The notes below the pieces were generated by a model. It was not told the DNA's origin and made no database searches. It saw only the letters and a program-made list of their open reading frames with translations. The translations under genes were made by a program, and so were the position numbers. 64,000 nucleotides of DNA from Psammoneis japonica (lineage: Eukaryota), in assembly GCA_008632985.1 (NCBI GenBank), contig QPGO01000093.1:124001-188000 (forward strand). The letters are read 5' to 3'. This document shows positions 1-41,434 of this stretch, piece after piece. Numbering within the stretch: position 1 is the stretch's first letter; every line of letters begins with the position of its first letter.

Positions 1-964
1 ACGGTACACGCCGAGCGGGAGTTCACGTGCAACGTCACTTATTGGCGCGGGGGGAGGGGCAGACGCGGAGCAAGGGTGGAACGTGGAACTGTTCTGAGTC
101 ACACAGGCAGGAAAAAGGATGGATTTCGAATTGGGGTTGGAGAGTTGGGATTGTAGCTTGGCAGAGTAGCGGGTCAGTTGGTCAGCAAGCGATTTAGTAA
201 TTGCAAGGCTCAGGCTTTGAAGGCCCCACTGTGATGGAGTTGAAGCGTGGTGGGTCAGGCCAAAGTGCTCGGCTGTGTTGTGTTTTGCCAAGCGGCAGCA
301 GCAGTGGGGAGAATGGCTGACGGTGACAATTGGGCACAGGCGCATGCGGCATGGGCAGCTGGGTGTTGGAAAGAGGATTCAGTGGTCCAGGGAGGGGCGG
401 GTGGGGCAGGGATGGGGTGTGTTTTGCCACATTGCGGAGCAGAGCTTGACGAATCCAGTCATCCATCAGAGACCCGCAGAAAAGGCCATGAGTCACAGGT
501 CATCGAACCCCACCATCTCATGGTGTGCACACGTGCGCAAACATTGGTCAACCCCTGCTCCAGATTGAAACTGACATCTCTCATTGGGGGTGCAACATTT
601 TCACTCATTTTCACCATCCTGATCGGCGTGTTTCGCACTTGTTGCTCCCAGATGTGTTTTGTTCAATGTGCACTCATTGACTTGCATGCCAACATGCCAA
701 GCAACATGGCAGCATTGCTCCTTTGTCTCTGAACAATTGCACTTCATTCCAACTGAAACATGTTCATTTTCACATTGTGCGTGCATTTGCACCGAAAGTG
801 CAGCATTTCCGTCTTCATGACAAATGTCAATCATTCAGCAAAAATTTCACCTTTTTCTGTTTCCCTTTTGTGTAAAAAAAAACATCCCCACCGTCAACTC
901 ACAATGTTCCTTTTGCAGCATTCATCCGGCCAATCGTGTGTGGGGCATTTGTCCCCTCCACTTG

Positions 965-1063
965 CACTCTCCATCGTGAGTCTATGCGTCGACCGTTCTT
1001 CGCGCGCGCGCTCGCACGCACCCGAAGGTCTCCTCATAGACTCTCGCGGAAGTAAGACGGACG
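965..1063 (+). repeat. Left TIR of MULE-like element
   Basis: CACTCTCCATCGTGAGTCTATG...AAGTAAGACGGACG is the reverse complement of 2615-2713. Contains an internal inverted pair GAGTCTATG/CATAGACTC. Confidence 0.95.
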
Positions 1064-2614: not shown

Positions 2615-2713
2615 CGTCCGTCTTACTTCCGCGAGAGTCTATGAGGAGACCTTCGGGTGCGTGCGAGCGCGCGCGCGAAGAACGGTCGACGCATAGACTC
2701 ACGATGGAGAGTG
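2615..2713 (-). repeat. Right TIR of MULE-like element
   Basis: Reverse complement of 965-1063; the same peptides appear in opposite-strand ORFs of the track. Confidence 0.95.
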
Positions 2714-3576
2714 CTCCACTTAACTTGTGATCTGCGGATCCAATCCCCCGCGCATTTTGCGAATCAGTGCAGAACCGCAAAAGTGGCATGACGAGGAGTC
2801 CGTGGATTCTCCACGCAAGACTGCACAGGTTCTCCACAAATCAATGTTTTAAAACCCACTGCATGCATCATCAAGAGCTGCCAAACAACTTGACCCCACC
2901 ATGACAATGAAATGTGTGACGGCGTTGATGCTCATTCCGCCTTTTATGAAGCACACATGGTCGCCAAGAAACAACAACAAACAGCAAAAAAAAAAAACAG
3001 GCTCCTTTCCTTTGATGCAAGTGGCAAGTTCGCGATTGATTGTTGATGGCTGATCAATGAATTTGCAGCAAAACATGCCTTCAGCATGGGACACACAGCT
3101 TCTGATGACATGAGTTCATTGTTGTGGTTGCCTCATGTGACTCATTGGTGATTTTCACTCTGTGAGACTCGGAAATCGACCCGAATGTGCTGCATCATGG
3201 TCATCGCGGTCGATGACTCGAGATGTTGGTGAAAGCACATTTTCCTCGCACGTGAGCCACGCAGAAATCATGCAGAAAAATGGCTCTTATTTTTGGACAG
3301 AGGATCCATTTAAATTCGAGTGCAGATGCACAGCCAAATAAAAAAACACATGGGAAGCACTCTTTTCAGGCAAGTAAAAAAACACAAAGAGGGGAAAAAT
3401 GCAGCCGTCGCTCCGCAAGACTCAAGAGACAACACAAAAAAGGGAGGGCCGGCTTGCAATGGCATGCAAAGCAGTGCAACCACGGCACAGTGAGTGCAGG
3501 CAAACACACAACACAAAAAACAACAAAGAATTGTTGCAACTGTGCCTCAGAGACAGACCAATCTGAGCAAGTGGAT

Positions 3577-3890
3577 GGCTGATGATCAAAAGGCCGGCAG
3601 AGACATCATCAAGGTGAGAGATCGTGTCAAAGAAGAGGCTTTTCTGAGCATCGCACTCACACTTTGTGCAACAAAACAGGTGCACTGCACAAAAACAAGT
3701 TTCGCTGCAAGTTTTGCTGGGGGGTTGATGTTGCAGACGGCTGATGATCAAAAGTCTGGTGGAGACATCTTCAAGGCAAGAGATCTCGTGTCAAAGAAGA
3801 AGCTTTTCTGAGCGCCGCACTCACGCTTGGCGCAAAATGACCAGACGAAACAAACAAGCTGTGCAAAGACAAGCTTCACCATGAGTTTCA
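3577..3890 (+). repeat. Diverged tandem duplication (~162-bp period) within a degenerate coding remnant
   Basis: GGCTGATGATCAAAAG...GAGACATC..CAAGG..AGAGATC..TGTCAAAGAAGA.GCTTTTCTGAGC occurs at 3577 and again at 3739. Confidence 0.7.
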
Positions 3891-4730
3891 TCAGAGAATT
3901 GATGTTGCACAAGATTCAAAACTCACACCAGCAGCGTGGCCATTTCCAATGACACAGGGGCGGGACAAAACAAGAGAGCGACTCTCAGCTCTGATGGGCA
4001 TTGCGAACGAGCTTGAGAGCATCGCCGACAAGGGGCTCATGCAAAAGGAGGATGTCACAAAGAAGAGAAAGTGCGCAAGATGACTCAAGCACTTTGTGCC
4101 AAGCAACTCGTTCCCGGCAAAGGAGGGCGCAGGAGGAGACGATGCATGGCACCAAGGAAGAGCAGCAAGGGAGGGGATGGTTGCCGAGAGCCAACAAGTT
4201 CTTCAAGGAGCCGGTCATGGAGATCAAACGCAACATCACGAGTGAGCAACTTGGTTGACAGGAAGATTTGTGTAGAATGATTTCAGGCAGCCACGGAAAG
4301 CAAGCGGGGGAGGACTTCACGGCTTGGGTGACAAGGGGGAGACCCCACATGGTGAGCTGTGCCAAGGTCGGCAAGCTGGAGCTGATGGTGGTTTGGCAGA
4401 TAAAAACCCATGATTGTAATTTCGTTGTTGTCCAACTCGAGCATTCTTACATTGTAGAAGCTGCACTTTAGACGGCCACTTGAACATTTCGTGTGGATGT
4501 AAACTTCTTGAATTTCACCGTGCAGATTGGATGCACCTCCCTGGATTCGAACCCACGGACATTTGTTGGAGGTGCGCGACATTTTATTCGAACCAACGGA
4601 CATTTGTTCGTTGATGTGGACATTCATTTATTATGTCAATCACGACTGTTTGTACAAGAAGAGTCGAAACATTGGTTTAAAATTTCAAATTCAACGGATG
4701 CTAGACCTTCATCGACGAATTTAACACAGC

Positions 4731-7700
4731 ATGGAGCGAAGTGACGTCACCTCGCGAACACCGTTGGCCGTGTTGGACGACACCAACAATGGCGACAATG
4801 GCGGTTCCGATTCGACGCCCACGAAACCTCCGGCTAAAAGAGCAAGAGTGGAGACTCAAGCCCTCACCCTCTGCACCAAGAAGGAACAAAAGCCAAAGAG
4901 ATTGAGCGGGAAGACGTGCTGCAATTGCACCTTGGGGTCAACCTGCCAAACACGTGGCTGCTCATGCTGCAAACATGATTGACCATGCACCTCTTGCGTC
5001 TGCTTCCACAAGTGCAAGAACAAGGAAGGGCTCAAAACTTGTGGCACAAGTGACAGGAATTCGGACAAGAAACAACGGAAAACCTCAACCTCCCCGGAAA
5101 CCAGCCCACTTCAGCCGAAAATCTGTCAACTCATCTCCGACACCCCTGATGATGCCAACAAACAGAACAAACCCAAGGCCAACACCAAAGCCAACAAAGA
5201 AAACACCACGCCCAACAATCAAGCGAAGGACACTGATGAGGGCAGAGATGGTGAGGAGGTTGACACTGCCTCAAGGGGAAGAGAGCAGCCGGAAGACAAG
5301 GAGAGCTCGGAGGGAGCAAAAATTCCGTCACATGACGACCCCGACAATGCACCCAACGACTTCAATTCGGACGCGGAACAAATCATGTGCAAGGTGTGCA
5401 GCAAGACCCATCACCTCAATGATGGCTCCCATCTGGATGGTGGAATGTCGGATGACAAAATTTGGCAAAAGCTGATGCCCCATCCATCACAACGATGCGA
5501 CGTTCCGAACGGTTCCGCAGGAAAACGGTTCATCAGAACGTCAGCAGAGTTGCCACATGGAGTCAAGACGCGAAAGTGGAACTCGGAGAGGTTCGCAGTG
5601 TTCCAGGCAGTGATTTTGCAGCAGGACCGCAACGCAAAACGAGCCAAGGACATTGGAACCCTGCTCACCAGGTGCATGGATGACTGGGACGCAGATGAGC
5701 ACAAGATGTTGGTCCAAGCGACCGAACTGCTGCTTGAGAGCAATCTGAAGACCGTTCAGAAGGAGGAGACACCAGAGCAGCACGCCAAGACATTCAATGG
5801 AATGGTGCTGCGAGGAAACCCAAGAGGAGCAGTTGGGCACATTTCGGAACATGAAAAAGGTGGAGCACTCGCACCCGATGACATTGACGAAAAGACCAAA
5901 GACACCGTGTTTGAGGCACTAGAATCGAAACATCTGGACCCGAGAATTCTGGAAGAAGACCAATTTCACAAATTTGACGAACTGCCTGAACTCCAGGATG
6001 TCATGATCACCGACAGTGCTGTCAAGACCGTCGCACGACGACTGTCCGGGAGTGCAGGCCTTGGCGGATCCGATGCTGGTGCAGTGTCGCAGTGGCTGCT
6101 CCACTGCGGAGAAGCCAGTGGATTGCTTCGTGAGGTGTTGTGCATGTTCACAAACTGGCCAGCCAATGAATCGCCCCCATGGGCCGCCTGCCGCGCAATC
6201 ATGGCAAAGCGACTCATCGCGCTGGACAAAAACCCGGGAGTGCGCCCGGTTGGCACAGGAGAGGTGTGGCAATGAGCCATGGCCAAAGCCGTTCTCCTGG
6301 TTGCTGGAGCAGAGGCCAAAGAAGCCTGTGGAATGGATCAGCCATGTGCAGGTCTAGAAGCAGGCATCGAAGGCGCGATTCACATGATGAATCTCCTCTG
6401 GGAACAGCACAAGTTCGAGGATGACTGCGGCTTCCTCTTCGTTGACGCCTCCAATGGATTCAACGAAGAGAACAGAGTGCTAATGTCACACAACGTTGGA
6501 CACCTCTGGCCATCCGGCGCCAGGTTCACTTTCAATGGCTGCAAGCATTGGAGCATCCCAATTGTCCACGGACACTTTGGCACCGCCTTCGCACCATTCA
6601 GCAAGGAAGGTGTCACGCAGGGCGACCCACTTGGCATGGTGGCCTGTGGACTGGGCCTTCTCCCACTGGTCCACAAGTTGAATGACATCTGTCAAGATGC
6701 TTTCACGCCATGGTACGCTGACGACTCCGCTGCAGCTGGGAAATTCAACATCCTTCGGGAATTTTTCTTAACTCTTCGAGTCGAAGGACCCAAGCATGGT
6801 TGCTGCCCTGCCGCCAATGAAAAGAACATCCCAGCAGTCCCAGAACGCAACCTGGAAAGCACCAGGGCGTGCTTTGGAGACCTCGGCTTCACTGTCTGCT
6901 CAGGTGGCCGCTGCCTTGGAGGCTTTGTCGGAGAGACGGACGCACGCGACCGATGGCCAGCGGAGAAAGCCGAGCAGTGGACCTCGGTCGTCCAAGGACT
7001 CGCAAATGTGGCAATTCATCATCCGCAGACCGCCCATGCCGGTCTTCAAAAGTCCCTGCAACACCAGTGGCAATGCGTCCAACGGGCAGCAAAGGACTGC
7101 GGCAAATCCTTTGCGGAAGTGGAGAGCGCGATCCAGCACCAATTCCTTCCAGCACTGGTTGGCGAGACCTTGGCAGACGACGATCCGAGACTAGCCCCAT
7201 CTGCCCTCCCAATCAAATTTGCAGGACTGTCCATCCCTCGTCCAACGGAGTCTGCATCCCAAAACCATGAAGCAAGTGCTCTCACGTGCTCTCACATGAC
7301 AGACTCACTCTGCGGCCACTCAGATTTCTCTTCAGCAGTCCACAAGGACACCATGCTCGAAGTGAAGGAAGAAGCAGCCAATGGGAAAGCCAAGACACAC
7401 AAGGAGAAACTCAAGACAATCCTCCGGACTCTAACCGACCTAAAAGCCAGAGCCATCAAGTGCAGCACCAGCACTGGAGCATGGCCATCGGTGCACCCAT
7501 CGATCATAAACGGCACGGAACTCTCTTGTCTAGAATTCCATGATGCGCTCTGTCTATGACATGGCTGCACTCCCCCCAACCTCCCGGAGCACTGCGATGG
7601 ATGCACCTGCAAATTCTCCATTGCCCATGCCCTGCAGTGCAAAAAGGGTGGCCCAGTCATCTCACGACACGACGATGTGCGTGATGACCTCGGTGACCTA

Positions 7701-8552
7701 ATTGGAGCGGCCTTCAAGCCCTCCTGCGTACGCGACGAACCCCTCATTAACCCTGTTGGTCACATCTCAGGAAGCCCAGGCTCCTCCAACAACTCCCAAG
7801 GCAACACAAACTCCAACATGTCCAAGGATGGCGACCGCGGAGATCTTTTGTCCAAAGGATTTTGGGACAAAAGGACAGACACCGTCATGGATGTTCGCAC
7901 TCCGGACACGGACGCGAAGTCATGCCTGTCCAAGACACCGGAAGAAGTTCTGGAACAACACGAACAAGAGAAAAAGCGCAAGCACCTCAAGCCCTGCCTT
8001 GAGCAACGACGTCACTTCACTCCCTTTGTCGCATCATGCGACGGACTGTTTGGCAAGGAAGCCAAAGCAGCGCTGCGCAGAATCTCTGCAAAACTGGCTG
8101 AGAAATGGCAAAAGCCACATTCAGAGGCACGCGGCTACATTGACGCAAGAATGAGCATCACTTTGGCACGGGCGACTCACCGTTGCCTCAGGGGATCACG
8201 TGTCCCTTCATCCCAGATCAGCTCAAGACGTCCTCAATGGGAGGATGGAGCTGGTCTGTCCCTTTGCAAACACCAAGTGACCCCCACTCGCACCAGACCA
8301 CTCATGCGGAACGATTGCTGACATGCTGCACACAGAGACCATCAATGCCACGCCAAGATGACAACAAAAACCTGGCAACATGCTGACAACGGCGCCAGAA
8401 TCGATTCGGATCTCACGCGCACAGCCCACAAAAACTGCACGCGACAACCACCCCTTGCTCGTATGACTGCATTAACTGCACAACATCCATTTTCTGATTT
8501 GTGGCAAACAGTCGTGATTCGTGTTAAATGGCCATGATTCATCATAAACAAA
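4731..8552 (+). mobile_element. Degenerate CRE-like non-LTR retrotransposon (Cys-rich N-terminus, RT, zinc knuckle, restriction-like endonuclease)
   Basis: RT motifs ALDKNPGVRPVG, AGLEAGIEGAIH, VDASNGFN, GVTQGDPLGM, WYADD and LGGFVG. Followed by CDGC...HALQCKKGG...RHDDVRD (7592-7685) and the RLE-type RGDL...MDVR..DTDA...EKKRKH...FTPFV. Broken by TGA stops at 4980, 6273 and 7557. Possible decayed (TAAA)n tail CATAAACAAACA near 8543. Ends are approximate. Confidence 0.88.
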
Positions 8553-8779
8553 CATGTGTGCGGGCTCTCACAAATGTCATCACAAACAATGTCCGTTGGT
8601 CAGACCATGAGACAATTCATGGAAACGGGCCTCTGATGTCCATTCATGTGCACCACAGCGAAGCACTGAGGAACAGCATTGGGTTTTCCTCCCACTCTAA
8701 ATGCAAAGGACTGTTCCAAGCATTGGGCCGGTCGTTCCAAGGCTGCAAGGCATGGAGGAGCCCTGACGGTTAACTCTTG

Positions 8780-9540
8780 AAGGTCGGCCGATGGACAAGT
8801 GGCCAGAGTGCAAAACTGAATGCTGCAGCCCAATCCACAGTCCAAAATCAAATGCATCGCACACTGTCACACAGTTTGACATTGTACACTGTGCTGCATT
8901 CTAAGCGCACCTGTCCCCATGAGCAACATGTCAACGAACAACGTCTTTCACTGCCTTCTTGACGCTTTGAAAGATGAGTTTGTGGGTTTCCTCATCTTCA
9001 TTTGATGCAATGCCACAAGCAACAATGTGGCCCTCTTGATTCAAACTTGCAACCTTGATTGGCATTAAACCAGCCTTTTCATGTGTGCAACAGCATGACG
9101 TGTCGATGGCAAAAAAGAAATCCTGCCCCGGCGCAAGTTGACAACATCCATTTGGCAGAAGATTCTCTGTAGAAAAAGCACAACAAAATCGCTCCATTTT
9201 GCTGTTGCAAAAATGCTCATCCCCGCAAAGGCATGTTGTGTGCTTGTCAAATGCATCAAGATTCATGGAGTTGTGCTTGCATCCCTCAAGTGTGTCCACA
9301 ATGCATCCCCAGCCTGCTCCACACTCCCTCCATTGGCAAGGTGCAACGTCAACACTTTCTTGGCTTGTTTTGAAAGCATCCTCTTGGCCTTCCACTGCAC
9401 ATCCTTGTCAAGATTCAAATTCTGTCCAAGGCCCCTTTGGAGCAATTGACTCAGACGCAACTCAGCAGGGTTGGTGTGTTGCACGCATTCCACCATGGCG
9501 CACTTTTCTGTTTGGTGTGTGCATGGGTGAAAGATCATGC
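8780..9540 (-). pseudogene. Degenerate MULE-type transposase fragment
   Basis: FFFAIDTS(C)...LMPIKVASLNQEGHIVA(C)GIASNEDEET(H)KLIFQSVKKAV resembles the MULE transposase core once Cys/His are read as former Tyr. Confidence 0.5.
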
Positions 9541-10274
9541 ATGACTCGCCATCGCTTTCCTTTTTAAAGAAACAGTGCAGCCGGGACAGGAAGAACAGAT
9601 CCCCCTCCTGCTCCCAAAGTTCACATTGGCCCAGTCATGCACAGATCCTTCACTGTTGCAGCCAGGGTGGGCGCAGCAGTGCAAGCATCTGCCAAAGGTC
9701 ATCAGAGGAGTTCTCTCCTGCGCCGATGCAATCCCTCCACATTTTCTTAAAGAAATTGAGCAGGACCAGGTGAACCTGACATTGCATTTGCTTTGTGTGC
9801 CAGAGGAAGGTGACTGCCTTGTTCGTTAGACTGCAATGGAGGGAAAATGTGCTCCCCCCCAGTTTGTGTTGTTCAATCTCATGTGGGATGTCTTTTCTTT
9901 CATCCTTGGAAGAAATCCATGGGTCAGCCAACAAGGCTTGGTGCACTGTCATTTGATCTTCCATGTGTGACACCACCTGACCAAGGAACACGCGCCAAAG
10001 CTGCATTGTTGTGTTGTTGCCAAGGGCAGTTTGAAAAAGTCCTTTGACAAAGATTCCCCGAGACCCGTGTCAAAGTTCATGGTGTGGCAGAAGTGACAAA
10101 GAAAGATTGGCAGGTGCAGCAGCTCATGCAGCTTTTGCAGCTTCCGCCCAGCTCTTCATGTCTGGGGGGAGAAATGAACCACGCGAGACACCAGCAGCCA
10201 AATTTTCTTTCAGATTTTGTTTGGATCGGCTCTCTCTTTTGGTGGGTTGCAAAGTTGATGCCATGCATGGAAGG

Positions 10275-12190
10275 TCAGCAAGTCTCTCTTTTTTTTCTTT
10301 TCCATTGGTTGCGTGTGGTGTTCTCTCCTTCGTCTTCGGATTTGGTGTCATCATGTTCTAAAGAATCATCCACATCCGTCTTGCAGGGAGCATCAGTTTC
10401 ATCCTCACTGCACTCTTCCTTGTCCACTGAATGCTTGTTGTTGGGATTGCACTCTTCCGGAAGTTGCAAATGATTGACTTGGAATTTGGAAATGCTGCAA
10501 CCCTCTGGCAATGGAAGATCTTCTTTGTCTTCCACACAGAAACAAGATTTGCACACTTCTTGGCCTTCCTTTGTCAGAAGTAGAAGATGAAATGCAAAGG
10601 CCATGCCCACCCAGTGATGAGAGTTTAGGAAGGCAAGTGAGGTCACACCGCCTTTGAAAGTGGTGTTTGCAAGAAAGAGTGGTGAGTTGATCTGTGTTTC
10701 CCAAACATTTTTCCACCAATCTGTCAACCTCACTTCTCACAGAGTTGGTCATGCTGTTGACAAAGACACCAATCTCCCTTTTTGGGGTTCAATTTTGAAA
10801 TGGGTGCATCATGTTGCTGGCAGCAGAAAGGGTGACCCTGAGTGGCTGCTCACCAAAATCTGCATTGAGCAAGCAGTTGGTGGCAACATTGTGTTGCTTC
10901 ATGCAGCACAGCTCTTGCTGCCAGTGACTCCTCTTCTCCTTGTCATCAAGGCTGGCATTGTTGACCTTGTGCTGAACAAGCAACAGATCACTTGCACACA
11001 CGAGCTTGCAATCCTTCCAGGGGTCATCAAGGTCATTGCATCCTGTCACGCAAAACCTGGAACAACGTTGGCAACAATTCTTGGTGCCATGCTGACCCAC
11101 AAGACAGTCGCCACTCTTTGCATCCCCATCAATTAGGGCCATTGTTGGAACCACATGCAGGTGGCAGATCATGTCACCCCATTGCACGCAACAGCAGAAG
11201 CCACCTTGTTCCACAATGTCAAGAAGTGGCTGGAGTGTTGTGCCCAAAACCTTGTGACAGTCATGAAGGCCGTGCCTCTTCTCCAACTTGTGCACATCAG
11301 ACTGCTGTTTGGCTGTGGAGGAGGACATTTTCTCCAAGTCAGGCATGCAGCCAAGGACTTGCCACTTGGCCCTGTCATGCCATTGTTTGCAGGCAACATG
11401 TGCCAAGGCAGCTGTGACAGGTTCTCCACAAGAAGATCCCATGGAAGTGGTTTTTCCCGTCTTGTCCATGCAAACTGTCAAACAATCAAGAAACTGTTTT
11501 TGAGGATCTGTGACTCTGGCTGTGCATGTCCTTCTGTGCCACTTGCTGGCCAAAACACACTTGTTGTTGTTGCCCTTGGCAACATGCATTCCAAATGGAT
11601 TGTTTGGGTCTGTGAGATTGCTTTTGGTTGCCCATGTGCAAGTGTCTGACATGAAGGATTCCCAGACATCTTTGAAATTCCACTGCGGAACTTTGACAGT
11701 TGTCTCACCACGTTCCCCAGCTGCACTTTCCAGGTTGACTGGAATCATCTCCCACTCCGAACCAGGAGATGATTTGTGGAGGGTCTCCATCAGTTTGCTC
11801 CAGCATGGCATTTGCATCCCAACCTGGAATGTGCTGCCACAGTGTCTTTCAATGAATCCAGCAATTTTGTCATGCAGGTGTGCATTGGTGCTCTGCAGTC
11901 ATCCACCAGCTTGCAAAGCTCAACGCAGGCACCGTTGAGGTTGCTCAGAGATGGCAAGCTGGCAAATGCATCTTCGGATGGGTGCCGGCAGACCTTTCCC
12001 AATCTGCTGTCATTGATGAGTGATGCATCGTTTGTGTCTGATGATGCAAAATCTCATCATTCGGTGTGGTTTTGGAAGCCTCCATGGTGACATCGGGTGA
12101 TGCATCAAACAAGTTGGCTTCTGACTTGCTCTCATCCAACATCATCTCCAACGACATGCACTGGTGCTCCTCTTTGTTGCACTGCAACCC
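10275..12190 (-). pseudogene. Degenerate Plavaka-like (CACTA-related) transposase
   Basis: ORF 10789-11817 has (C)MDKT, GEPV, WQVLG(C)MPDLE, IDGDAKSGD(C)LVG..CQRCSR.C and MMH motifs. ORF 10275-10733 continues with F.GGVTSL...VGM. No Tyr in 342 aa. Confidence 0.65.
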
Positions 12191-12997
12191 AAGAGGGGAA
12201 ACATCATCATCAAAAGGTGCTGACCATGGTGCATCAGTTGGGTCCTCTTCAACAAGCAGTCAACCTGAGTTGGATGTTTGCAACAGATGCTCCCCACTGT
12301 GACCGCCTCAACCTGGGGAGTGACACAAAAGTTGTCTGATGATGAAGAAATGTCCAGTTGCTCTGACAGCATTCCATTCAATTGGACATTCCTGGAAGGA
12401 GAAGTTTGACCCACAACTTTAACGGAGACGTCCGGTGATGGGGAGGGGGGCAACAGGCTCTCAACGCGACAAGTTGGCCTTCTCGTGAGTGACCAAAAAA
12501 CGTTGTGGGTTGTGATGGAAATGGGTGAGCGTGCATGTGAATGACCATTTGCAACACGGACATGCAACAGCCTCACCCTGCTGAACACCATTGCTGTCCA
12601 TTTTGAAAAACGCAAAGTGTTGTGAGTTGCACAACTGCAGTTGTGGAGCAATGGCCAAACTTGGTTAGATCATGGAAATTGGGTGGATTGTGTTGGGAAG
12701 CAAGGAAAACACGACACAAAATGGTGCAAAAACACAAGTTCATTGCTTTCTTTGCGTGAATGAAAACATTTGCAGGTGCAAATGAATTGCATGCATTGGG
12801 ATCATTGATCACTTTGAGCAAGGAAAGGAGAAAGCAAGTTGTGATGTGTTGGTCACAATCATTCTGGGCGCACCTCACAATGAATTTTGATCACTTTGCT
12901 GCAAACCATGAACCTGGTTGCACAAAATGAGACAGATCATTGGCCCATTGACCAAACAACTGCTGGCAAAAATTCAAGGAGATGACAAATGTGATGG

Positions 12998-14203
12998 ATG
13001 AAACAAGAAAACAAATTGCAGAAGTGGAGTGTGGTGCAGCTTGAATCTGGGAGAAGGGAACACACTGATGACAATGGGGGGTGCTGGATCAAGGAGGGAA
13101 GGAGGGAACTCACAGATGACCCGCACAATTGCCGTGACTGCATGGACATGTTTTGCATGTTGGACAGTGTTCAATTTTGTGTGGATGATGTGGAACTCTG
13201 GTGGATGTGGAAGGAACAATGGAAAAACAAGTGCAGGTTGATGGTTTTTGCATTGGCCCATGTGAGAGAGTGGAGTGACAAAGCAGTTGAGTGCACACAT
13301 GCCAGTGCCCACATGTTCTCCATGAACAATGAGATCAACTGGGCAAATGCAAACATTGATCATGGGAAAAATGCACACAAGTGCAAGGAGCATTGGGGCT
13401 GCATTGTGACCCACCAGGACAGGCAAGCTGAGAAGCATTGTGTCTGCAGTCATTGCCACAATGATGGAGAGAGTGAAGTGAGAGATGAGTTTGCAGTGGG
13501 ATCAATGGGGGGCAACATGAAATTAGCCATGGACAGGCAAAACATTCATGCTTTGAAGGACATGTCCAGCATCAGCTTGCCAACTTGTGGAACAGACAAA
13601 AAAGGAAGGTGCGGGCCACTCGGAGTTAGATCCAAGTGGGGAGGCACTTGCGGACTGGTGATGGACAAAGAGGTGATTGTCTTTGATGCATTGAAACTGG
13701 CAAAGTGGTTCCAGCATGAAATGCTGCAGGACAATCATGAAAAGCTGTGGTTTTGTGACGGAATGGAGTTCTTTTGTTTGTCACCCAGGACAGTCAATGG
13801 TTGGATGATGGATTTGGTTGAGAAGGAGAGTCAAGGTGGAACTCATGAGCCACACCATCCAAATGAGAACAAGAGATGCTGCAGGGCAGAGAAACTCTGG
13901 CGTGATCACATGGACCATTTTGTGAATTGTGTCAAGCCAGAGACATTGGCTTTCAATCGCATGACTGATTGTTCTGACATCGGGCAGCACAGCAAGTTTA
14001 AAATTGCAAGTTTGGAGGGAGATGCATTGGGGGAAGTGGACCAGACAGGATTGTGGTGCCAAAATGCTGGTGGCACTCCACCACCAGTGGGACGACGGGA
14101 AGGCGGGAACTGGTGTCATTTGTTTGTTGCATTCAAAATCTCTTTTGTGGGTGCCATGGTTTCCAAATGCCTTTGTGAGTTGGACAAATGTGTGTGTCAT
14201 TGA
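12998..14203 (+). pseudogene. Degenerate ORF of unknown function, probably cargo or accessory gene of the Plavaka-like element
   Basis: 401-codon open frame with protein-like composition but no Tyr and excess His/Cys; oriented divergently from the transposase. Confidence 0.4.
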
Positions 14204-14456
14204 ATGAGCTGGAAATGGATTTAGAAATCACAGTTGTGCAGATGTTTGAACTGGATTGTGCATCAACAGAAAATTTTCAAAAACAACAAAGAATGGTGAA
14301 ATTCATTTTAAAAGAATGTGCAATCACAGTCATGGTCATTTGCAAGTTACATGGCTGTAAAAAGAACAGAGTCATTGGTGAGAGCATCAGGTGTTTGGTG
14401 TTAAAAGAGAGGTTTGAAATTTTTGCAATGGCAACAATCATCAAGGGAACAGAGGC

Positions 14457-15825
14457 GTGCAGCTGCCCCTCATTTGCACAACATTGTCAGAGGCAATGGC
14501 AAGGAAGAAGAAAAAAACAGAGTGGGGAAGTGGCTGGAGATCAACCAACCAGCCAAAGGCTGGCAGCGGCATTGATGCGGGCAGGAGCCAGTGGAGATCA
14601 CCAGTCTGTAAAGAGGGAGGTCAAAGAGGTGGCACAGAGAGAGCCATTCCCAAAGGCAAAGTTCCTTGTCAAGGCAGACATGGAGAGCAGTGGAAAAGTG
14701 TTGCGGCTCATGTGAAAAAAAAAACAGCCGGTTGCAATTTCAGCATGCAAGACTGGGCAGGATCGTGGGAAGACTGGGCAAAGAAGTGCATCATGAATGC
14801 AACCAATGTAAAAGGGAACACCGTCACACAGACGATGCAGAAGAGCGCAATGGCTGGCAAGTGTTTTGTGATGCATGGCATGTTGAGTGCAGCAACACAC
14901 TCAACACAACCCTTCTTTGGTGCAGTCATGATGACAGAGCAGCAAGCAAAGCAATTGCATGGTCAGAAGAGAGCTGCTGTAAAAAAAAGAGGAAAGAGGA
15001 AGAGGAAGGGTCAAGCGGCAGATGAAGCTGTTCCTGGTGACATGGGAGGATGAGACAGTGGACATCATTGTGGGGGAGAAGTGAAGGAACAAGGAAGCAC
15101 ATGTGCGGTTCTACAAAAATGTCCTTAAATTCACAAAGAGCACTGCGGTGTGGAGAAAGAAGGTGGAGTCGGGTGAGACCAAGGCTCCAGATCTAACTGC
15201 GGCAAGCAACAAGGCTCTGGGGCTGTTGACATTGGAAAACTGCTGGAAGATTTGGGAGCACAAGGCCCTTCATGACAAGACTGTTGAAGGGGGAGCAGAC
15301 ACAGGGGATGAAGAGGAGGAGGAGGAGGAGTCAAAACCAGCGCCCAAGTGTGCAGACCCAGTGCAACAGCGCAACTCATGGAATGATGAAGGAATGTTGC
15401 AATTCAACACCCCACTTGCACAAGTGAAGGAGGACAGGGCAAGTGAGAAAGGTGTGCAGTTTGACACATGGCAGAGTGGCGGCAATGAGAGGGAGAGCAA
15501 TGAAAAGGTCGAGGGAGCAAAAAAGAAGAAAATGCCGGTGGAGAAGCAGGTGAGGAAACAGGCAATGACAGAGCTTTCCAGCAACAATGAGGAGGACAAG
15601 GAAGAGGAAACGGAAAAGGACCTGCACAACAAGGACAGCAAAGAAGAGGAGGAAGGAAGTGAAGCAGGAACCAAGGATGAAGAAGAGGCAGAAATGGAGC
15701 AAACTCCAGTGCAGAGAGGGAGGGAAGCCTTTTGTCAATGCCAGAATGGAAAACTGCAAAGCACTGCATTGGTGTTCATTGAAAACACTTGCAAACCAGG
15801 AATGCAGAAATTCGATGTCAATTGA
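14457..15825 (+). pseudogene. Degenerate accessory gene of the Plavaka-like element with acidic C-terminus
   Basis: FPKAKF, then SNKALGLLTLEN(C)W.IW...WNDEGMLQFN...VKEDR...F. I associate this pattern with accessory ORFs next to Plavaka-type transposases (from memory, unverified). Frameshifted. Confidence 0.45.
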
Positions 15826-15908
15826 GAGATGTCTCACACTGTTGGTTGATGAACAACTTGTGCCACACATTCTAAAAAAAACATTGAATGTGATTGTCAG
15901 CACAAATT

Positions 15909-16076
15909 TGTGGACTGCCAGCATTGGGACAACATGATGGATGTCTGGGACAGATGACAATTGTGCGCTGGATGAGAAAGAAAGTGAACAAAGGAGAGAT
16001 CATCAGATCTCTCCATGCTGTCTGTGCCAGTCTGTCCAACACAAGGGAGTGCGCTCCCCCTCTCAGATGTCTGTCA
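15909..16076 (-). repeat. 3' LTR of Copia copy 1
   Basis: TG...CA on the minus strand; colinear with 21625-21792 and 34795-34963; preceded by the purine tract AGGGGAGGG (16077-16085, minus). Confidence 0.9.
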
Positions 16077-19000
16077 CCCTCCCCTGATGAGCAATGCAAT
16101 GCTTGTCAAGGAAGAGAACATCTGAAAAAAAGAGGACCAGAACAGCAGAACAAAGTGAGGGCCAAAAATTTTGCCCAAGACTTGACTCACAAACACGACA
16201 ACAATCAACAGCAGTGTCCCATCAAGTGGCAGGCATGGCAGGAATGAAGCATCCAAACCACAACCTTGGTCAGCACATCAGCAGGGTTGATGACACCCGG
16301 AATGTGTCGAGTGACAATTTTGCCCGCCTCGCGCCAGTCTTGGATTGCAAAATGTGAACATCAATGTGGCGGGAATGCTCCGCAGGCACCTTGTGATTGA
16401 CCATCTGGGTGGCAGAAGAGTTGTCAACATGCAAGGGAGCAGGTTCACATTGGGGAAATCCCAGCTCTTCAAGTGCCATCCTGAGATTCAAAGCCTGCTT
16501 CACACTGGCAACAGCAGCAACAAGAAATTTGGCTTCTGTGGAGCTGGCAGCTGCAATTGTCTGAGTTTGGCAATGGCAATCAACCACAGCACCAGCAAGG
16601 ACATGTGCATGTCCAGCAGCAGAACGCAGATGCCAAAGTTTGTTGGCATGTGCTGCATCAACAAAGCCAAGAAGTTGGAACAGATCATCAGCACAAGGAA
16701 ATTCTGGAAGAGTTGGATCCAGTTCCAACCATTCAAACAAAGCAAGGAGGAAGACCTGGATTGTGCTTTGTCTTCTTGTGCATCAAACCCCCCAATGTTT
16801 GGTGCAGCGCAAATGCTTTGCCACGCACTTGAGAGAGGTGCAGTGAATCTCAGTGGGACAACCAATGTCCAAACAACAACAAGTGCGTGCAAAAATAAAT
16901 TCACCCACAACAGATTAACAGGAAAAAACCTGGAATTCCGCCAATGCTTCACAGTCCAGGGTGCCTTCAAAGGGGCCTTCAGCAGTGTGCAGTTCTGCAA
17001 TGCTTTCAACCAGGATGGGTGCAGCCTTGAAGTCACTGTGTCAGATTTGTCAGCAGCAAGTGAGTCCCAGCTGTCAGTCTTGAAGACTTGGTCTAAGCAG
17101 CTTGCACATTTTGTCATGATGGAGTCCTTGTTCTACACCACATCAATGCCATTGAACTCGGCAACCAAACTGAGATGCTTGAAAGGAGGCAAGTCTTTGT
17201 TTTCCATTTGGAGTTCCTTGCCAACATGATCACAGATTGCTTTGGCAACATCCTCTGAGGGACAAACAAGAGCAAAGCCATCAACCTGATGGAGCAACAA
17301 TGCTTTGACACCATCACAAGTGCCAGAGTGGACACACTTCTTGTTGTGGGTGGTGTTGCGGAAGAGAAGTTTTGCCTCCTTGAGTGTCAAATTGATGTGC
17401 TTTTCCCATGGAACACCAGCTTCAGGATGGCCCTGGAGAGCATGCTTGAGCAGGAGAACAAAGTTGCATGTGACCTTCTTCCCCAAATGCTTCTCATGCC
17501 ACACAGCACATGCATCATCTGTGGCAACATAAACAGGTGCAGATGGACCTGGAGAGTGAGCATGAGCATCATGAGCATCACCACCAAAAATGCAATGCAA
17601 CAAGGCAGCACCAAGAGCAAAGAACATCTTCTCAATCAATTGGTCAACACAAGATGAACACGTGGAGGTCAACTTGTGCAAAGCTGGTGGGGCAGACTTT
17701 GAGCCATTTCCACACTGCCTGGAGCAACATTGGCCATCAGGTTTCACCATGTGATCCCAACACAGATGCACAGCAGTGGCGCCAGGAGGTTGTGGTTGTG
17801 GAGGACCACACATGCCGAGTGCAAAGAGTTGGTCCAGTTGATGGTGTTCACCTTTCTCCCATTCAGGCCATGCATCCAATTTTCTAAGCTTGGATTGGGC
17901 AAGTTGATCAAGAGCAGCTTCCTTGGGGGTGAGAGAGCAAGAGCTGATTGCATTGAGATGTGCATGAAAGTCTTCCGTTGGAACAGATTGTTCCAAAAAA
18001 TCATCTTCAGGATGGAGAAGAGCCGCAATTGAACACGCATCTTCAAGGGCAAGTTCCGGCACATGTGAGTCATCTTCCATGGAATTGGGGTCAAATGACT
18101 CTGCTTCCTCAAAAGCTTTGTTGAGAGTTTGTGAGTCCAAATGTCTTTCTGGTGCAAAAGTGATCTCAAAAGTTGGGATCTCTTCATGGAAGAAATGTGA
18201 CAGTGCAGCTTCAGCATCCTTTGGTGTGAATGCTTCATGCTTGTTGACAGAGACAATGTGAGCACCCATGATCTTGTTGCGAGTGGCACAAAGTGAAGGA
18301 AAAAAAGAAGCTGCAGGACTGCGCTGCTTGATTTCAGATGCATGGGCATGATCCATCAAAGCACACTGGGAGAAGCCAAGCCCACAAGTGGGATCTGTGG
18401 GAGGGTGTTTCATGGTGCAGGTGACAGTCTTGGCAAAAGGATTTGAGGATGAAGCAAACATGGGAACAGTTGTTTCCTGTGTTTCAGCCAGGAAAGGCTG
18501 ACCATTTTTCACATGCTGCAAATGGGTGGCATTCAGGGAAAGCCTGTCAGATGACAAATCATTCATGCCTTCATCATGCTGCACATGCTCAGCCCTCTTG
18601 ACTTTGTCAGTCATGGGGTCCCACCAAAGAACGTTCTTCAAAGTGTTTGGCAGATGGCCAAGGAATGCCCCTTTCTTTGAGTTTGTCCTGAATGTGGCTG
18701 GATGAGCAGAAGGTTGTTCAGCCCATGCTTGGCATCCAAAAGTTTTCAACGTAGAGAAGTCTTCAATCTTTCCAGTGGCAAGGGTGATCGGGGCAGCATC
18801 TTGATCTTTTGAAGGAGTGGCATTCTTGACATGCAGGCAATGACAAAAAGCACAGGGCCAGAATCTGATCGGGAGGTTGGCACCAATTAAAAATGCGCAA
18901 ATCGCATTCTCAACAGTCAAATGTGAGTGTTTGACAGGTCCACATTGGTTGGAGGTGCCAGTGCCAGAAGGACACATGTCATGCTGGAATTCACATTCAA

Positions 19001-20686
19001 AGATGTCACGAACTTTTGGATTTTTGTGTGATTCCCCACCTTGGTCCACAAAGACATGTTTGTCATGACAGTTTGGCAAATGTTGATCCAAGAATCAGCA
19101 AAGCCACTTGAGAGGACTGGCTTTGGAAACCCATGCAACCCCATGGAGCATGCAAGTTTTGTGGTCGCACACACTGATCCAACATGTTTCATCTTTGAAA
19201 CCAAGATGGTCAGACTGGCAGTTTTCATTCTTTTAGAGACTTGACCAGCAAAAGCAAAATCCACAGCAAGACCTTGGCATGGTTGAGTTGCCTTTTGAGT
19301 TGCATTGGGTCCAGCAGCTGTCTTGACTCATTTTGCCTGGATGCGTGCTGGACAAACATCAAGCACCGGGTTGGCATGACAAAACTTGGGAACTCCTTTG
19401 ACACACTTGCGAGCATCACACAAGCAATGATCACTGGGATGACCAAGATGGTGATGCCACAGCAGAAATTCAGTCTCAATTTTTAGAGAACAGACCAGAG
19501 CAGGAGCAGGCAAAGGGGGCAAGACTTCATCAATGGAGTTGCACTTCATCAAAAACAGCTCAGTGTCCATCACAGGAGGGGCAGTTGAGTCATGTTGGAC
19601 ATTGACACAGAACGCAGCATGTTGGCATGCATCTTCAAGATCAGCAACCAAGGTTGGATTGGACATTGGAAGTGCTTGATGTCTGGCAGCCTCTGACGGG
19701 GGAACCAAAGCTTGGGCAAAGACCTTTCCATGGCAAAGAATGCCATGGACAACCACCTTGTGGGCATTGGTCAAAGCAGCACATGTGCAAGCACTGTCAG
19801 CACAGGTCTTCTCAAGGAGCTTGGATCCAATGGCATGGGGTTTAAAACCAGAAGCCCGCACAAAATCACATTCATCAATCAAGGTGGAATGCAGACTTGG
19901 GTGGCAAAAAGTGCGCACAAAAAGGAAGCCGTCTGCATTCTCTGCAGGCACTTGCAAGCAACCATGGCCGTGGGGAATTGCATCAGGAGATCCTTTGGTG
20001 GCAGGCAGCATCTTCAAAGGGCATGGGTTGTCTGGTCCAAATGGGGTGTGGGCATGAAGAAGGTTCTTGTCTCCAGCGCAGGACACCCAAGCACCTGTGT
20101 CAATCTGTGCATGGCACATCGATGAATCTTGGAGCACATGGACCAAATTGGGAGGAAGTCAAATGGAGTCATCTTGAGGGCAGCACATCCATCACCGTGG
20201 CAGACCCATTGGCGGACAATGTCAGGACACTTGGAGTCAGCTGGAAAAATCCCAACCTTCTGGATGTGCTGGAAGATGGTCAACTTCATCCAATCAAGTG
20301 GTGCGTGCATGCAAAGTGGTGGGTCATCTGTGGAATCATTGCCACTTGTGAAACCTCAATTGCTGCCATCCTTGACAAAACACCACAAAGGATGCATGTG
20401 TGCACCACAAGCTGAAGCTTGTTGGGTTGCAGTTGTGTGCCATGCACGGATTCCTTGAGGAGAGATGTCATCACAAGTGAGAAGAGCATGAAGAAACAAC
20501 TTGGCATCCCAATTGGTGCAATGGACAGAAAGAGAGCCATTGGCGCAAGTGTGAGATGTTCTGCACCATCTTCATGATGAAGATTGCCAGACTTGTGGGG
20601 TGTCAGTGATTTCCCTGACACTGTGTTCCCTGCTTCCTTGCATTGATGGCAAGCCAACACATCCTTGGGGAGTCCTTTTGGGTTGA

Positions 20687-20688
<2 letters not shown>

Positions 20689-20721
<33 letters not shown>
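20689..20721. repeat. (GT)16 microsatellite inside the gag region of Copia copy 1
   Basis: Directly visible; absent at the homologous position (~35855-35865) of copy 2. Confidence 0.95.
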
Positions 20722-20722
<1 letters not shown>

Positions 20723-21624
20723 CACTGGTTGCAGTCAAGGCAGAAGCCACAGTGGCAGCAGTCATGGCAGAAGATGCAGAAGATGGTGCAGGAAGAGTGG
20801 TCTTCTTCAACATGTCGTCAGTCACAGCCTTCTCACACTCTTTTGGACCGGGCAAATGGGTGGCCAAGGCCTTGGCAAGATCTTCAAGGTTGGCACCTGC
20901 AGCGGCAGCCAGTGGAGGTGCAGAACTTGAGGCATGACATGACTTTGGATGTGGAGTGTCGGGTGTGTTGTCCCAACATGCATGAGATTGAAAATCAGGA
21001 CTGAAGAAGAGACAGATGGATGCAAACACATGTTGTCACAGCATCCTGACCATGCAAGATTGCCTTGATCATGGCCTTCTGAAGATTGGCATGGTTCAGA
21101 CAAACCTGAGAACCTTGAGGAGCAGCCACAAATGGAGGAGCCTTGTCAATGATTGATGCAATCCATGTGAGATCCTCAATCAGCGCAGCTTGGGGGGTGG
21201 TGAGGTCCTGAACAATCTCGCGAGATGGAGTGTTGGAACAGCATCACTCTTGAGGCCTTGAGGAGCAAATCCATCTAGAAGATCTTCAGGAGCAGGGATC
21301 TCATCTGAACAAAGGGTGTTCAGGTGAATGTGGGCATCAGGTGAGAGGTGATGTGGCTTGAATTTGACCAGCATGGGCACGATCTTGGTGAAATTGACGG
21401 CGTTTGTGTGTTCTTGTTGACCACGGTTGCAAAGGAAAAAATTAAGTTCCTGCACAGAGCTCTGGCATGTGCTCTGTGGTGGTTGTTTGATCACAAATCA
21501 AGAGGCAAAAAACAGCTGTGACAATGATGACGATTTCAACGGAGGAAAGTTGCCAAACCACACAACGGGCATTGCAGCACAGCAGTGCAGAGAAAGACAA
21601 ACAGCGCACTGCTGCTCACAACCT

Positions 21625-21792
21625 TGCAGACTGCCAGCATTGGGACAATTCAATGGATGTCCAGGGCAGATGACAATCATGCACCAGATGAGAAAGAAAG
21701 CGAGCAAAGGAGAGATCATTGGATCTCTCCATGCTGTCTGTGCCAGTCTGTCTGACACAAGGGAGTGCACTCCCCCTCTTGGATGTCTGTCA
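21625..21792 (-). repeat. 5' LTR of Copia copy 1
   Basis: Colinear with the 3' LTR; followed on the minus strand by GGTTGTGAGC, a mutated Copia-type PBS (GGTTATG...). Confidence 0.9.
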
Positions 21793-22032
21793 CAAATTGT
21801 TTTTGTCAAAAGGCTTTTTAGTGTTGAAGTCTGCAGGCAAAAAAGGCAAGCACTCTGAAGGGGAAACAGGGTGCATTTTCACAGTTGAAGGTTTCATCTC
21901 ACAGGACACAGTGGGGTGCAAATTGTCACCACAACAGTCAAGGCTTGAAACAATGGAATTTCATGCCGTGACAGATTGAAAAAATTGCCATGAGAAAGGT
22001 GGTCTGGATCACTGCAATGCATGCTCTGATGC

Positions 22033-22611
22033 ATGTCAGCCACATCTCATCAACGTTGTCATGTCTGTGCTTGCAAGAACACCAAGTGCCCAGCAAAGCG
22101 GGGTGACAACTCCATGAAAGGCATCTTCCTTGGGCACATGCCGGACCCAACCAAGGACATTGTGTGGTGTGATCCAGTGTCTGACCTTGTCAAGATGGAC
22201 ACACATTTTTGCCTCAATGAAGGTGTGAATGATCTCCCCCATGGCCAAACACCACCGAGCATCATTCATCTTCAATGGACACAGAATGGCGAACTTTTTC
22301 CAGCTGAGGAAGAGGAGACATCAATTGAGAAGTTTCACTTTGCTGGCAATCCTTTTGCCCAGACCCTCAAGTTCAAGATGTGGTGGTCTGCATTGGATCC
22401 AAAGTGTGGCATGACTTTCAAGACTGATGAGCTCTTCAACCATGTGTGCTTGTCTGATGTCAAGTGTGGCAGCTCTGCGGCATGCCTCTTCTCCTCTCAC
22501 AAGGCGCTGCTCGGAACAAGATCTGATTGGATCCACAACCACTGGAGGCAGGTTGTGCACCTGTCAATTGTTGACACCATTGGCAAAGAAGATTTCATGA
22601 AGAAGCAATGA
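22033..22611 (+). mobile_element. Fragment of a related Copia pol (post-integrase SH3 region)
   Basis: KGIFLGHMP...IVWCDP..LVKM.TH..LNEGVNDLP...NGELFPAE is paralogous to the same region in copies 1 and 2. Confidence 0.75.
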
Positions 22612-22774
22612 TGTGCACTTTGCCAGTGTTGGGGCACTCCAGTACAGATGTTCAGTTCGCTTAGAGACGAGTATGGAAGGTGAGGGAGGGGGTAGTTCGT
22701 TTGTGATAATGTATGCTACTGACGCATTTTGATGCAAAGTGTAAATGACAAAAGTATGAAAACTACCTCATGTC

Positions 22775-32900: not shown

Positions 32901-33026
32901 CAGCCACTGGATTGCCAAAATGGGTGCACAAGTCCCACGACAGAGAGCTGCAAATGTCAGAATCTACACCTCTTGGTGGGTGGAAAGACAGCTGTGGCAA
33001 ATGATCAAAGTGCCTGCTGCAATTAA

Positions 33027-41430: not shown

Positions 41431-41434
41431 GACC

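Follow-up and report, generated by a model that had tools for sequence, protein, structure and literature searches.

A 64,000-nucleotide stretch of contig QPGO01000093.1 from Psammoneis japonica (hereafter the window, in whose own numbering all positions are given) contains blocks of transposable elements (TE) that have lost nearly every TA dinucleotide, alternating with blocks of host genes. The old copies in the TE blocks, namely two Copia retrotransposons, an RVT_1-type retroelement and unclassified repeats, underwent two saturating, context-specific transition processes from which the host genes escaped. The first process converts TpA to TpG or CpA (A:T>G:C) and strikes both strands about equally. 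The second converts CpG to TpG or CpA, and CA and TG are thus the common sink of both. We regard it as very likely that the TpA changes represent a hypermutation of DNA restricted to transposable elements.

The TE blocks were set by TA density (201-1000, 2801-22600, 32200-33000, 33600-47600 and 61600-64000, 37,803 bp in total), and host blocks of 25,102 bp were pooled as the control. The TE blocks hold 143 TA sites, which is 0.38% of dinucleotides with an observed/expected ratio (o/e) of 0.06, whereas the host blocks hold 970 (3.87%, o/e 0.58); at the host frequency 1,463 sites would be expected in the TE blocks. CG is also reduced, to 1.61% (o/e 0.27) against 5.66% (o/e 0.98) in the host blocks. 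Conversely, CA makes up 11.17% (o/e 1.74) and TG 10.72% (o/e 1.78) of the TE blocks compared to 7.58% and 7.00% of the host blocks, the rough equality of CA and TG indicating that both strands are affected. Losses and gains balance, with TA plus CG down by 7.55 percentage points and CA plus TG up by 7.3, while each of the remaining twelve dinucleotides shifts by 1.1 points or less, and most by less than 0.7. With CpG lost from these blocks as well, the TG/CA excess is in part derived from CpG. The GC content remains constant (48.6% in TE blocks and 48.1% in host blocks) because the TpA and CpG processes shift it in opposite directions and cancel, which makes such blocks invisible to the GC- or AT-based scans that find repeat-induced point mutation (RIP).

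Along the window, the TA o/e in 1-kb windows is 0.00-0.25 over 3-22 kb, 34-47 kb and 62-64 kb, whereas the host-gene blocks (23-32 kb and 48-61 kb) range from 0.37 to 0.83. The block edges are sharp, within 200 bp: in 200-bp bins, the TA count rises at about 22.6 kb (0 to 10) and at 47.6 kb (2 to 8), and it drops at 61.6 kb (12 to 0). The loss of CpG is strong from 9 kb onwards and mild at 3-9 kb, where the RVT_1 element and its surroundings have a TA o/e of 0.02-0.25 and a CG o/e of 0.58-0.83. Since TA is almost gone in this part while CpG is largely kept, the two processes are separable. An earlier reading made from the letters alone (the sequence-only reading) had described the near-absence of TA together with an excess of TG and CA in the transposon blocks, and both the 1-kb windows and the pooled dinucleotides confirmed it. 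The interval that it gave, 2723..22640, is indeed TA-free, but the TA-free DNA already starts at about 200 and is broken at 964-2714 by an unmutated element with terminal inverted repeats (TIRs). It had rightly set aside loss of CpG through 5-methylcytosine (5mC) as unable to remove TpA, yet it overlooked the depletion of CpG in the same blocks. The coordinates of the features are collected in Table 1; the rest of the TE blocks is unclassified repeat in which Pfam recognised nothing.

Table 1. Blocks and elements of the window, with strand where one applies.
Feature	Positions	Strand	Characteristics
TA-free repeat block, left part (resumes at 2715)	201..963		1 TA in 763 bp (o/e 0.02); CG o/e 0.45, CA 2.09, TG 1.51
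TIR DNA transposon, 1,751 bp, young, unmutated, nested	964..2714		103-nt TIRs (964-1066 versus 2714-2612) 99% identical; flanking TCCACTT target duplication
Main TA-free block of nested transposons	2715..22640		Composition, 200-bp bins
RVT_1-type retroelement frames	4983..8321	+	Three frames, two stops between; YADD box kept; TA nearly gone, CpG mildly depleted
Copia LTR retrotransposon, copy 1	15901..21793	-	LTRs (long terminal repeats) 15901-16077 and 21617-21793; SH3_retrovirus and gag_pre-integrs domains
Host-gene control block, TA and CpG normal	22650..32150		Composition; DUF1501 and DUF1800 exons on minus strand
TA-free repeat block	32200..33022		3 TA in 823 bp (o/e 0.06); CG o/e 0.35
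piggyBac-like MITE (miniature inverted-repeat transposable element), 506 bp, unmutated, nested	33023..33528		TTAA at both ends, CCC...GGG inverted termini; TTAACCCTTCAACCACC / GGTGGTTGAAGGGTTAA
TA-free, CpG-poor transposon block	33529..47600		Over 34-47 kb TA o/e 0.00-0.08, CG 0.06-0.16
Copia copy 2, opposite orientation, about 72% identical to copy 1	34795..41425	+	gag_pre-integrs in 38131-38541
Host-gene control block, TA and CpG normal	47650..61550		Composition; AAA_16 ATPase 55864-58494; GGACT 54530-55429
TA-free, CpG-poor block running off the window end	61600..64000		TA o/e 0.05-0.08, CG 0.05-0.15

The direction of change was read from alignments of each open reading frame (ORF) with its homologues, using columns in which at least 60% of the homologues have a residue in common. 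The homologues show a normal tyrosine content (median 2.9% of residues over 283 proteins); therefore, the ancestral sequences contained TA, and TpA has undergone A>G or T>C on either strand. In the Copia ORF 17136-19094, compared with 21 homologues, none of the seven conserved Tyr residues is kept, four having become His (CAY), two Cys (TGY) and one Trp, whereas 132 of the 185 other conserved residues are retained (Fisher p = 2e-4 for Tyr). In addition, two conserved Ile are replaced by Thr (ACA) and four conserved Val by Ala. Conserved Arg survives in this ORF at one of 19 columns (7 His, 3 Cys, 3 Gln, 3 Lys, 1 Phe and 1 Ser at the others), and 13 of the 18 losses lead to His, Cys or Gln, as from CGN codons. 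In this Copia element, CpG transitions thus came in addition to the TpA changes. The RVT_1 ORF 6276-7556, compared with 43 homologues, keeps one of five conserved Tyr, the other four being Cys (TGY), and 116 of 144 other conserved residues. Six of its 27 conserved Leu are replaced by Pro, every one encoded by CCA, which is the product expected from CTA>CCA. Conserved Arg is kept at 5 of 11 columns of this ORF, where CGC and CGG codons persist. Over both ORFs, Tyr has become Cys or His in 10 of the 12 conserved columns (6 Cys and 4 His), with one Trp and one Tyr kept. This outgroup polarity, from Tyr to Cys or His, from Leu (CTA) to Pro (CCA) and from Ile to Thr (ACA), supports the sequence-only proposal of an A:T to G:C conversion at TpA, on either strand and in mobile DNA only. 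The altered motifs that it had listed (RCLGG, KKRKH, WPCA, FLGH, WPAN and TGE) are all present in the translations.

The loss of TA also shapes the reading frames. No Tyr is present in the stop-to-stop frames 4983-6272 (430 amino acids, aa), 10792-11898 (369 aa) and 12995-14200 (402 aa), and a single Tyr in each of 6276-7556 (427 aa) and 17136-19094 (653 aa); host ORFs have 24 Tyr in 877 residues, 14 in 300 and 15 in 281. The reported contrast between Tyr-poor long ORFs and normal host genes thus holds when counted in stop-to-stop frames. In the TE blocks TAA and TAG are nearly gone and TGA is almost the sole remaining stop, resulting in long false ORFs in all six frames; 342 stop-to-stop frames of at least 80 aa are found in the window, mostly in TE blocks. 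A Pfam scan recognised a family at E<=0.01 in only 9 of 214 stop-to-stop frames of at least 100 aa, 4 of the 9 lying in TE blocks. With laxer thresholds, 22 TE frames yielded noise only, and the Copia reverse transcriptase is no longer recognised. As Pfam fails on these copies, the transposon content of such DNA will be under-annotated. Gene callers and protein databases will gain Tyr-free, Cys/His-rich pseudo-proteins from it, and several predicted public proteins among the 150 Copia matches listed are already of this kind.

The two LTRs of Copia copy 1 (177 bp) are 85.9% identical, with 25 differences. Sixteen of these lie in eight CA/TG swaps, three are CpG versus TG/CA and six are other changes; neither LTR has a TA left, and no CG is common to both. 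Eight discordant sites are close to the expectation for full independence, given that TA and CG originally made up about 9.5% of the 177 dinucleotides and that such sites would resolve oppositely in about half of the cases. Edits made in RNA or early complementary DNA (cDNA) would be common to both LTRs. Therefore, each LTR was mutated separately, most simply after integration. Copia copies 1 and 2 likewise seem to have changed independently of each other, to judge from the 240 CA/TG swaps between them. About 90-95% of the TA sites were converted compared to about 1.7% of other change per LTR, a rough rate about 100-fold above background.

Read support was evaluated by aligning Logan short-read contigs of one run (X1) over 2723-22640. 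The eight longest contig pieces shown (590-889 bp each, word depth about 58-64) differ from the window in 0-3 letters and so back the assembled bases. The summed word depth per bin over the same interval is 90-3265, exceeding the 58-64 or so of exactly matching single contigs, which indicates that most of it is multi-copy. The X1 differences from other copies are mainly transitions (295 of the 346 listed) and include several adjacent CA>TG or TG>CA pairs. One X1 contig joins 15897 to 21795 with seven other letters between, exactly skipping Copia copy 1. As the flank depth is 1,200-3,265, this Copia copy probably lies inside a high-copy repeat whose other copies lack it. Two further contig joints, 4629>8498 and 4632>8568, suggest that the RVT_1 element is an insertion into another repeat; its homologues carry PF00078 and include diatom records (Attheya and Thalassiosira). 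Directly before the frames of this element, a 600-bp patch of the TA-free block (4250-4850) has an intermediate TA content with 15 sites (o/e 0.37), and its CpG is normal (1.03).

A related Copia family from environmental metagenomes carries the same signature, copy by copy. In one metagenome protein cluster, near-identical copies differ mostly by Tyr>Cys, with 8, 9, 2 and 3 such changes in four members relative to an intact member of 1,422 aa, and close metagenome protein variants show 22 Tyr>Cys versus 1 Tyr>His. A metagenome scan with the intact member (P0281) yielded 80 Copia loci with a median TA o/e of about 0.66, seven of them at 0.24-0.40; a scan with the window's own Copia protein yielded 63 pattern matches and no relatives. 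Forty-four copies were aligned to one locus (L010), after 31 loci without a match of at least 84% identity and 400 bp and five near-identical duplicates were dropped, and changes were counted against the majority consensus (3,231 positions, 69,950 site-copies and 4,949 changes, of which 1,397 are transversions). The substitution table by context that the sequence-only reading had called for, run on this family, gave A>G at 10.7% of TpA sites versus 1.6-3.5% after A, C or G, and T>C at 8.8% of TpA sites versus 4.0-6.2% in other contexts. C>T was found at 13.0% of CpG sites versus 3.2-5.8% elsewhere, and G>A at 11.2% versus 1.8-6.2%. By the base 3' of the adenine, A>G occurred at 11.3% of TAT, 11.3% of TAC, 8.8% of TAA and 6.0% of TAG, mirrored on the other strand by 14.1% at ATA, 11.2% at GTA, 6.5% at CTA and 5.8% at TTA.

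Conversion in this family is concentrated in some of the copies. Twenty-nine of the 44 lost 20% of their TA sites or less. In the locus L058, 45 of 55 TA sites are now TG (30) or CA (15), alongside 25% CpG loss and 5.4% background divergence, and these 45 make up most of the 51 TA sites lost; L067 has 42 of 57 TA sites converted to TG/CA and L057 66 of 117. Across L058, L067, L057, L069 and L072/L073, about 59-93% of the consensus TA is converted at ordinary background divergence. The direction of change along a metagenome copy is close to random. Runs tests gave no sign of long processive runs in the window's Copia pair (z = -1.54 for strand-coordinated clusters) or in eight metagenome copies (z from -2.38 to +1.31), of which only L058 is nominally clustered. 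TA depletion spans the entire hypermutated contigs, which therefore hold no boundary information. The DNA adjoining the Copia match of L069 is still more depleted (TA o/e 0.12-0.17), and the converted sites in the 3' part of L055 coincide with those of L057, as though one copy had first been mutated and then duplicated or recombined.

The 143 TA sites surviving in the window's TE blocks fit the neighbour preference of the environmental family and also a simple per-strand multiplicative model. Among these sites TTAA is 6.4-fold and CTAA 2.9-fold over-represented, whereas GTAC stands at 0.43, ATAC at 0.09 and ATAT at 0.

Some mobile and duplicated sequences in the window were spared. The nested TIR transposon has 93 TA sites (o/e 0.75) and a CG o/e of 1.13, and no Pfam domain was found in its frames; given its normal TA and CpG, it is either a recent insertion or a member of a class spared by the process. 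The MITE has 39 TA sites in 506 bp (o/e 0.85) and a CG o/e of 1.01. We take it to be piggyBac-like from its TTAA target and CCC/GGG ends; it contains three copies of a 32-nt palindromic unit (GGGAGCAAATCTCCAC..GTGGAGATTTGCTC), and TTAA, the tetranucleotide enriched among surviving TA sites, is the piggyBac target. As these two nested young elements are unmutated, the process is not regional. A tandem duplication of about 950 bp in the host gene region 27290-29205 likewise has a TA o/e of 0.60-0.72 and mixed substitutions without hypermutation. Its pieces are 92.8% and 98% identical, with a CBM_4_9 match nearby, and the single N letters at 28021 and 28241 fall exactly on piece boundaries and may mark an assembly seam. 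The sequence-only reading had called the process repeat-targeted. Taken as duplication sensing, this is not supported: the tandem duplication and the two young transposons were spared, and duplication alone is thus probably not the trigger. The process either needs time or a silencing mark, or else spares DNA transposons.

Based on these observations, we propose that the target of the TpA process is the double-stranded copy after integration, where its chromatin carries the marks of silent mobile DNA. It would be the same kind of event as that measured directly in mutation-accumulation lines of Bigelowiella natans, as far as the sections of the preprint drawn on here describe it (Mettrop et al., bioRxiv 10.64898/2026.01.13.699255). 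It would work as a mutational genome defence by destroying Tyr codons and turning Leu into Pro via CTA>CCA. In the preferred chemistry, adenine in 5'-TA-3', mildly favoured when a pyrimidine follows (TAY), would be deaminated to hypoxanthine, which is then read as G; a putative TadA/ADAT-like deaminase recruited to silenced elements would carry this out. The loss of CpG would be ordinary 5mC deamination of methylated transposons. The observations to be accommodated are an LTR pair saturated independently (eight CA/TG swaps in 177 bp), nested repeats that are all TA-free, classified targets that are all retroelements, and two clean DNA transposons. Taken as a whole, with the observation, the defence in situ and the preferred chemistry together, we consider this the best explanation and a reasonably probable one. 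Its weakest step is the enzyme, for which an adenine deaminase is a tentative choice.

Several points weigh against this proposal. All classifiable affected elements are retroelements (Copia twice and RVT_1), and both DNA transposons of the window are unmutated; because both are clean, such a set of victims also fits editing of a replication intermediate, or the mere youth of the DNA transposons. One LTR of Copia copy 1 matches the LTR of copy 2 at seven of the eight discordant sites, so the direction of change is not fully random. CA/TG is the commonest dinucleotide difference between Copia copies 1 and 2 (240 in 5,568 aligned positions), but these swaps are not in themselves assignable to TA over CpG ancestry, and under a crude two-state model CpG alone could explain all 240. 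That model cannot split the swaps by ancestry in the Copia pair, where only two CG and two TA sites are still shared. The environmental family is metagenomic and only 32-47% identical in protein to the window's Copia. X1 may be the assembly's own sample and then gives no independent support, and part of the surviving TA may have arisen by back-mutation of TG or CA, so that a context preference inferred from the window carries less weight. The evidence is a historical footprint, and the analysis observed neither an enzyme or modification nor a de novo event. Finally, TpA is palindromic, A>G on one strand being T>C on the other, and consequently deamination of adenine and modification of thymine predict the same spectrum.

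Modification of thymine is the first of two alternatives that we hold to be unlikely, at about the same level. A TET/JBP-type dioxygenase would hydroxylate T at TpA in silenced transposons, and the resulting 5-hydroxymethyl- or 5-formyl-uracil would mispair with G, giving T>C. It fits the spectrum equally well, since the palindrome leads one to expect both TA>CA and TA>TG, and the flanking preference can be read as RTA (ATA and GTA above CTA and TTA). In trypanosome telomere repeats, base J is found at the thymine of TpA; 5-hydroxymethyluracil of dinoflagellates is enriched at TpA, and 5-formyluracil causes A:T>G:C transitions. Nevertheless, the present data offer no support for such an enzyme or base in diatoms, and the sole published case, in the parts considered here, favours a deaminase, although unproven.

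In the second of these, an APOBEC-like deaminase of single-stranded RNA and cDNA would edit adenine at UA/TA in the replication intermediates of the retroelements during retrotransposition, giving TG from genomic RNA and CA from minus-strand cDNA, and copies would arrive already hypermutated. In its favour, the classified mutated elements are all retroelements and both DNA transposons are clean, and boundaries at element ends would follow automatically. The all-or-little pattern among the metagenome copies resembles APOBEC-hypermutated proviruses, and the excess of Tyr>Cys over Tyr>His (22 to 1) in close metagenome variants is a sense-strand bias. In the window's elements, however, both directions are about equal, and the two LTRs of one insertion are each saturated yet discordant at the eight CA/TG sites. 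A saturation of about 95% is hard to reach in one cycle, and TA is missing to the same degree from the unclassified repeats into which other elements are inserted. The targets in B. natans, as the preprint sections describe them, are integrated DNA viruses mutated in situ.

It is most improbable that these families always avoided TA, for instance because of a TA-cutting nuclease or TA-targeting insertions, without any mutation after insertion. TA avoidance does exist in some genomes, and TA in the host is already lowish (o/e 0.58). Against this, conserved Tyr, Leu and Ile of catalytic regions are replaced by the exact products of one transition, frames are broken by stops, and the LTRs of one insertion differ by CA/TG swaps. 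Relatives are normal in TA and Tyr, and natively TA-free elements, which the sequence-only reading had named as the finding that would overturn it, are contradicted by the median of the 80 metagenome relatives and by the young nested transposons. As far as a single window allows, native composition is already refuted. An assembly or sequencing artefact has next to no chance, as the eight longest short-read pieces match, the pattern respects element boundaries and codon logic, nothing was found in its favour, and the single Ns (28021 and 28241) lie in a host-gene block.

Other mechanisms were rejected. Error-prone repair by Pol eta at WA motifs, an early candidate, fits poorly because AA is not depleted (o/e 1.19 in TE blocks and 1.14 in host blocks). 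Eukaryotic 6-methyladenine (6mA) sits at ApT, and AT barely changes (o/e 0.87 versus 0.91), which speaks against a 6mA-based mechanism. GC-biased gene conversion is not TpA-specific, and the creation of new TA by CpG decay is ruled out by dinucleotide logic.

The AAA_16 ATPase and its neighbouring gene have nearest protein-atlas clusters that are eukaryotic, most often Bacillariophyta. The best sequence matches are metagenome proteins at 61-66% identity, besides one diatom transcriptome protein at 38%. From these matches, and from a host TA frequency unlike that of B. natans, the sequence reads as that of a diatom and not of B. natans. At 22778-25249 on the minus strand, DUF1501 and DUF1800, domains typical of planctomycete-like bacteria, occur in short separate frames that look like exons of intron-bearing host genes of bacterial ancestry. 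The plus-strand frames at 48400-52600 contain internal repeats that are 74-91% identical (for example 49929-50364 versus 51031-51477) and look like a repetitive host protein gene; the TA o/e of this region (0.37-0.51) is slightly under that of other host genes.

Among known systems, fungal RIP is likewise a saturating, context-specific and copy-specific transition hypermutation that kills transposons and spares genes. However, RIP changes C to T, for the most part at CpA, and thereby generates TpA and AT-rich DNA, whereas here TpA is destroyed and the GC content is unchanged. RIP is also triggered by duplication and tied to a sexual stage, whereas the 950-bp or so tandem duplication here was spared. 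Many diatoms carry DNMT4 enzymes, of no known function, that are related to the RIP enzyme RID, and diatom transposons are CpG-methylated, by DNMT5a in Phaeodactylum, according to the sections of PMC9998398 drawn on here. Decay of methylated CpG would account for the CpG>TpG/CpA half of the pattern (CG o/e 0.27, and conserved Arg changed to His, Cys or Gln). It cannot remove TpA, as the 3-9 kb part shows, where TA is almost gone at a CpG o/e of 0.58-0.83.

ADAR/ADAT enzymes and TadA-derived base editors make A>G changes with a 5' U/T preference, and the tRNA substrate of TadA is U-A-C, which is compatible with the TAY preference of the environmental Copia family. Natural ADAR/ADAT-type enzymes edit RNA, and no natural enzyme is known to act in this way on TpA in double-stranded chromosomal DNA. 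The preference of ADAR is for a 3' G, whereas TAG is the least mutable context in the environmental family (6.0%). RNA editing would affect the sense strand only, whereas both strands are changed here (Tyr to His four times, Tyr to Cys six times and CTA to CCA six times).

The closest known system is that of B. natans. The sequence-only reading was aware of no description of such a process, but a 2026 bioRxiv preprint reports TpA-restricted A/T>G/C hypermutation of integrated viral DNA in this species, and a full-text literature search found it as the only description of TpA hypermutation and none for diatoms. In the sections of the preprint drawn on here, two integrated viral regions gained 231 mutations, of which 230 are A>G or T>C, the GC-directed ones all at TpA, and the rate is about 6e-7, about 1000-fold above background, with hypermutation in some lines only (Mettrop et al., bioRxiv 10.64898/2026.01.13.699255). 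The same sections describe TpA-poor, CpA- and TpG-rich coding sequences of B. natans enriched in reverse-transcriptase and DDE domains, and propose an ADAT2 homologue as the enzyme (10.64898/2026.01.13.699255).

To the extent of those sections, the two cases have in common that TpA>TpG/CpA change is confined to foreign or mobile DNA, that the host is normal and that the mechanism is unsettled. They differ in lineage, as B. natans is a chlorarachniophyte (rhizarian) and the host here is probably a diatom (stramenopile), and in host TA, which is 3.87% here and 6.0% in the B. natans preprint. The targets are retrotransposons and other repeats here, and inserts of nucleocytoplasmic large DNA viruses (NCLDV) and virophages there. 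Depletion is near saturation here (TA o/e 0.06), compared to 0.45 for the NCLDV region of B. natans. CpG decay is coupled to the TpA process here, and the main text of the preprint does not contain the words CpG, diatom, trinucleotide or flanking. The evidence in B. natans comes from de novo mutations in mutation-accumulation lines, in contrast to the historical footprint analysed here.

Diatoms dominate ecologically, and genetic work is possible in several species, which makes the responsible enzyme findable. A natural A:T to G:C activity at TpA in chromosomal DNA would also interest the base-editing field. It is possible, though we doubt it, that diatoms and chlorarachniophytes, and perhaps the wider SAR group, have in common an enzyme, guided by chromatin, that makes A:T>G:C edits at TpA in double-stranded chromosomal DNA, a true reverse RIP. 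If so, it would together with 5mC deamination turn every silenced transposon or integrated virus into TA-free, CpG-free, CA/TG-rich DNA of unchanged GC content, and with this enzyme a natural DNA adenine editor, or a thymine-directed mutator, would for the first time be seen to serve genome defence. Since the 2026 preprint, the process is not categorically new. The window adds a second lineage, at saturation and on ordinary transposons, and the environmental Copia family adds a first estimate of the flanking preference as well as evidence for a wide occurrence of the process among environmental eukaryotes. A mutational genome defence first described in 2026 would then be known from two independent lineages.

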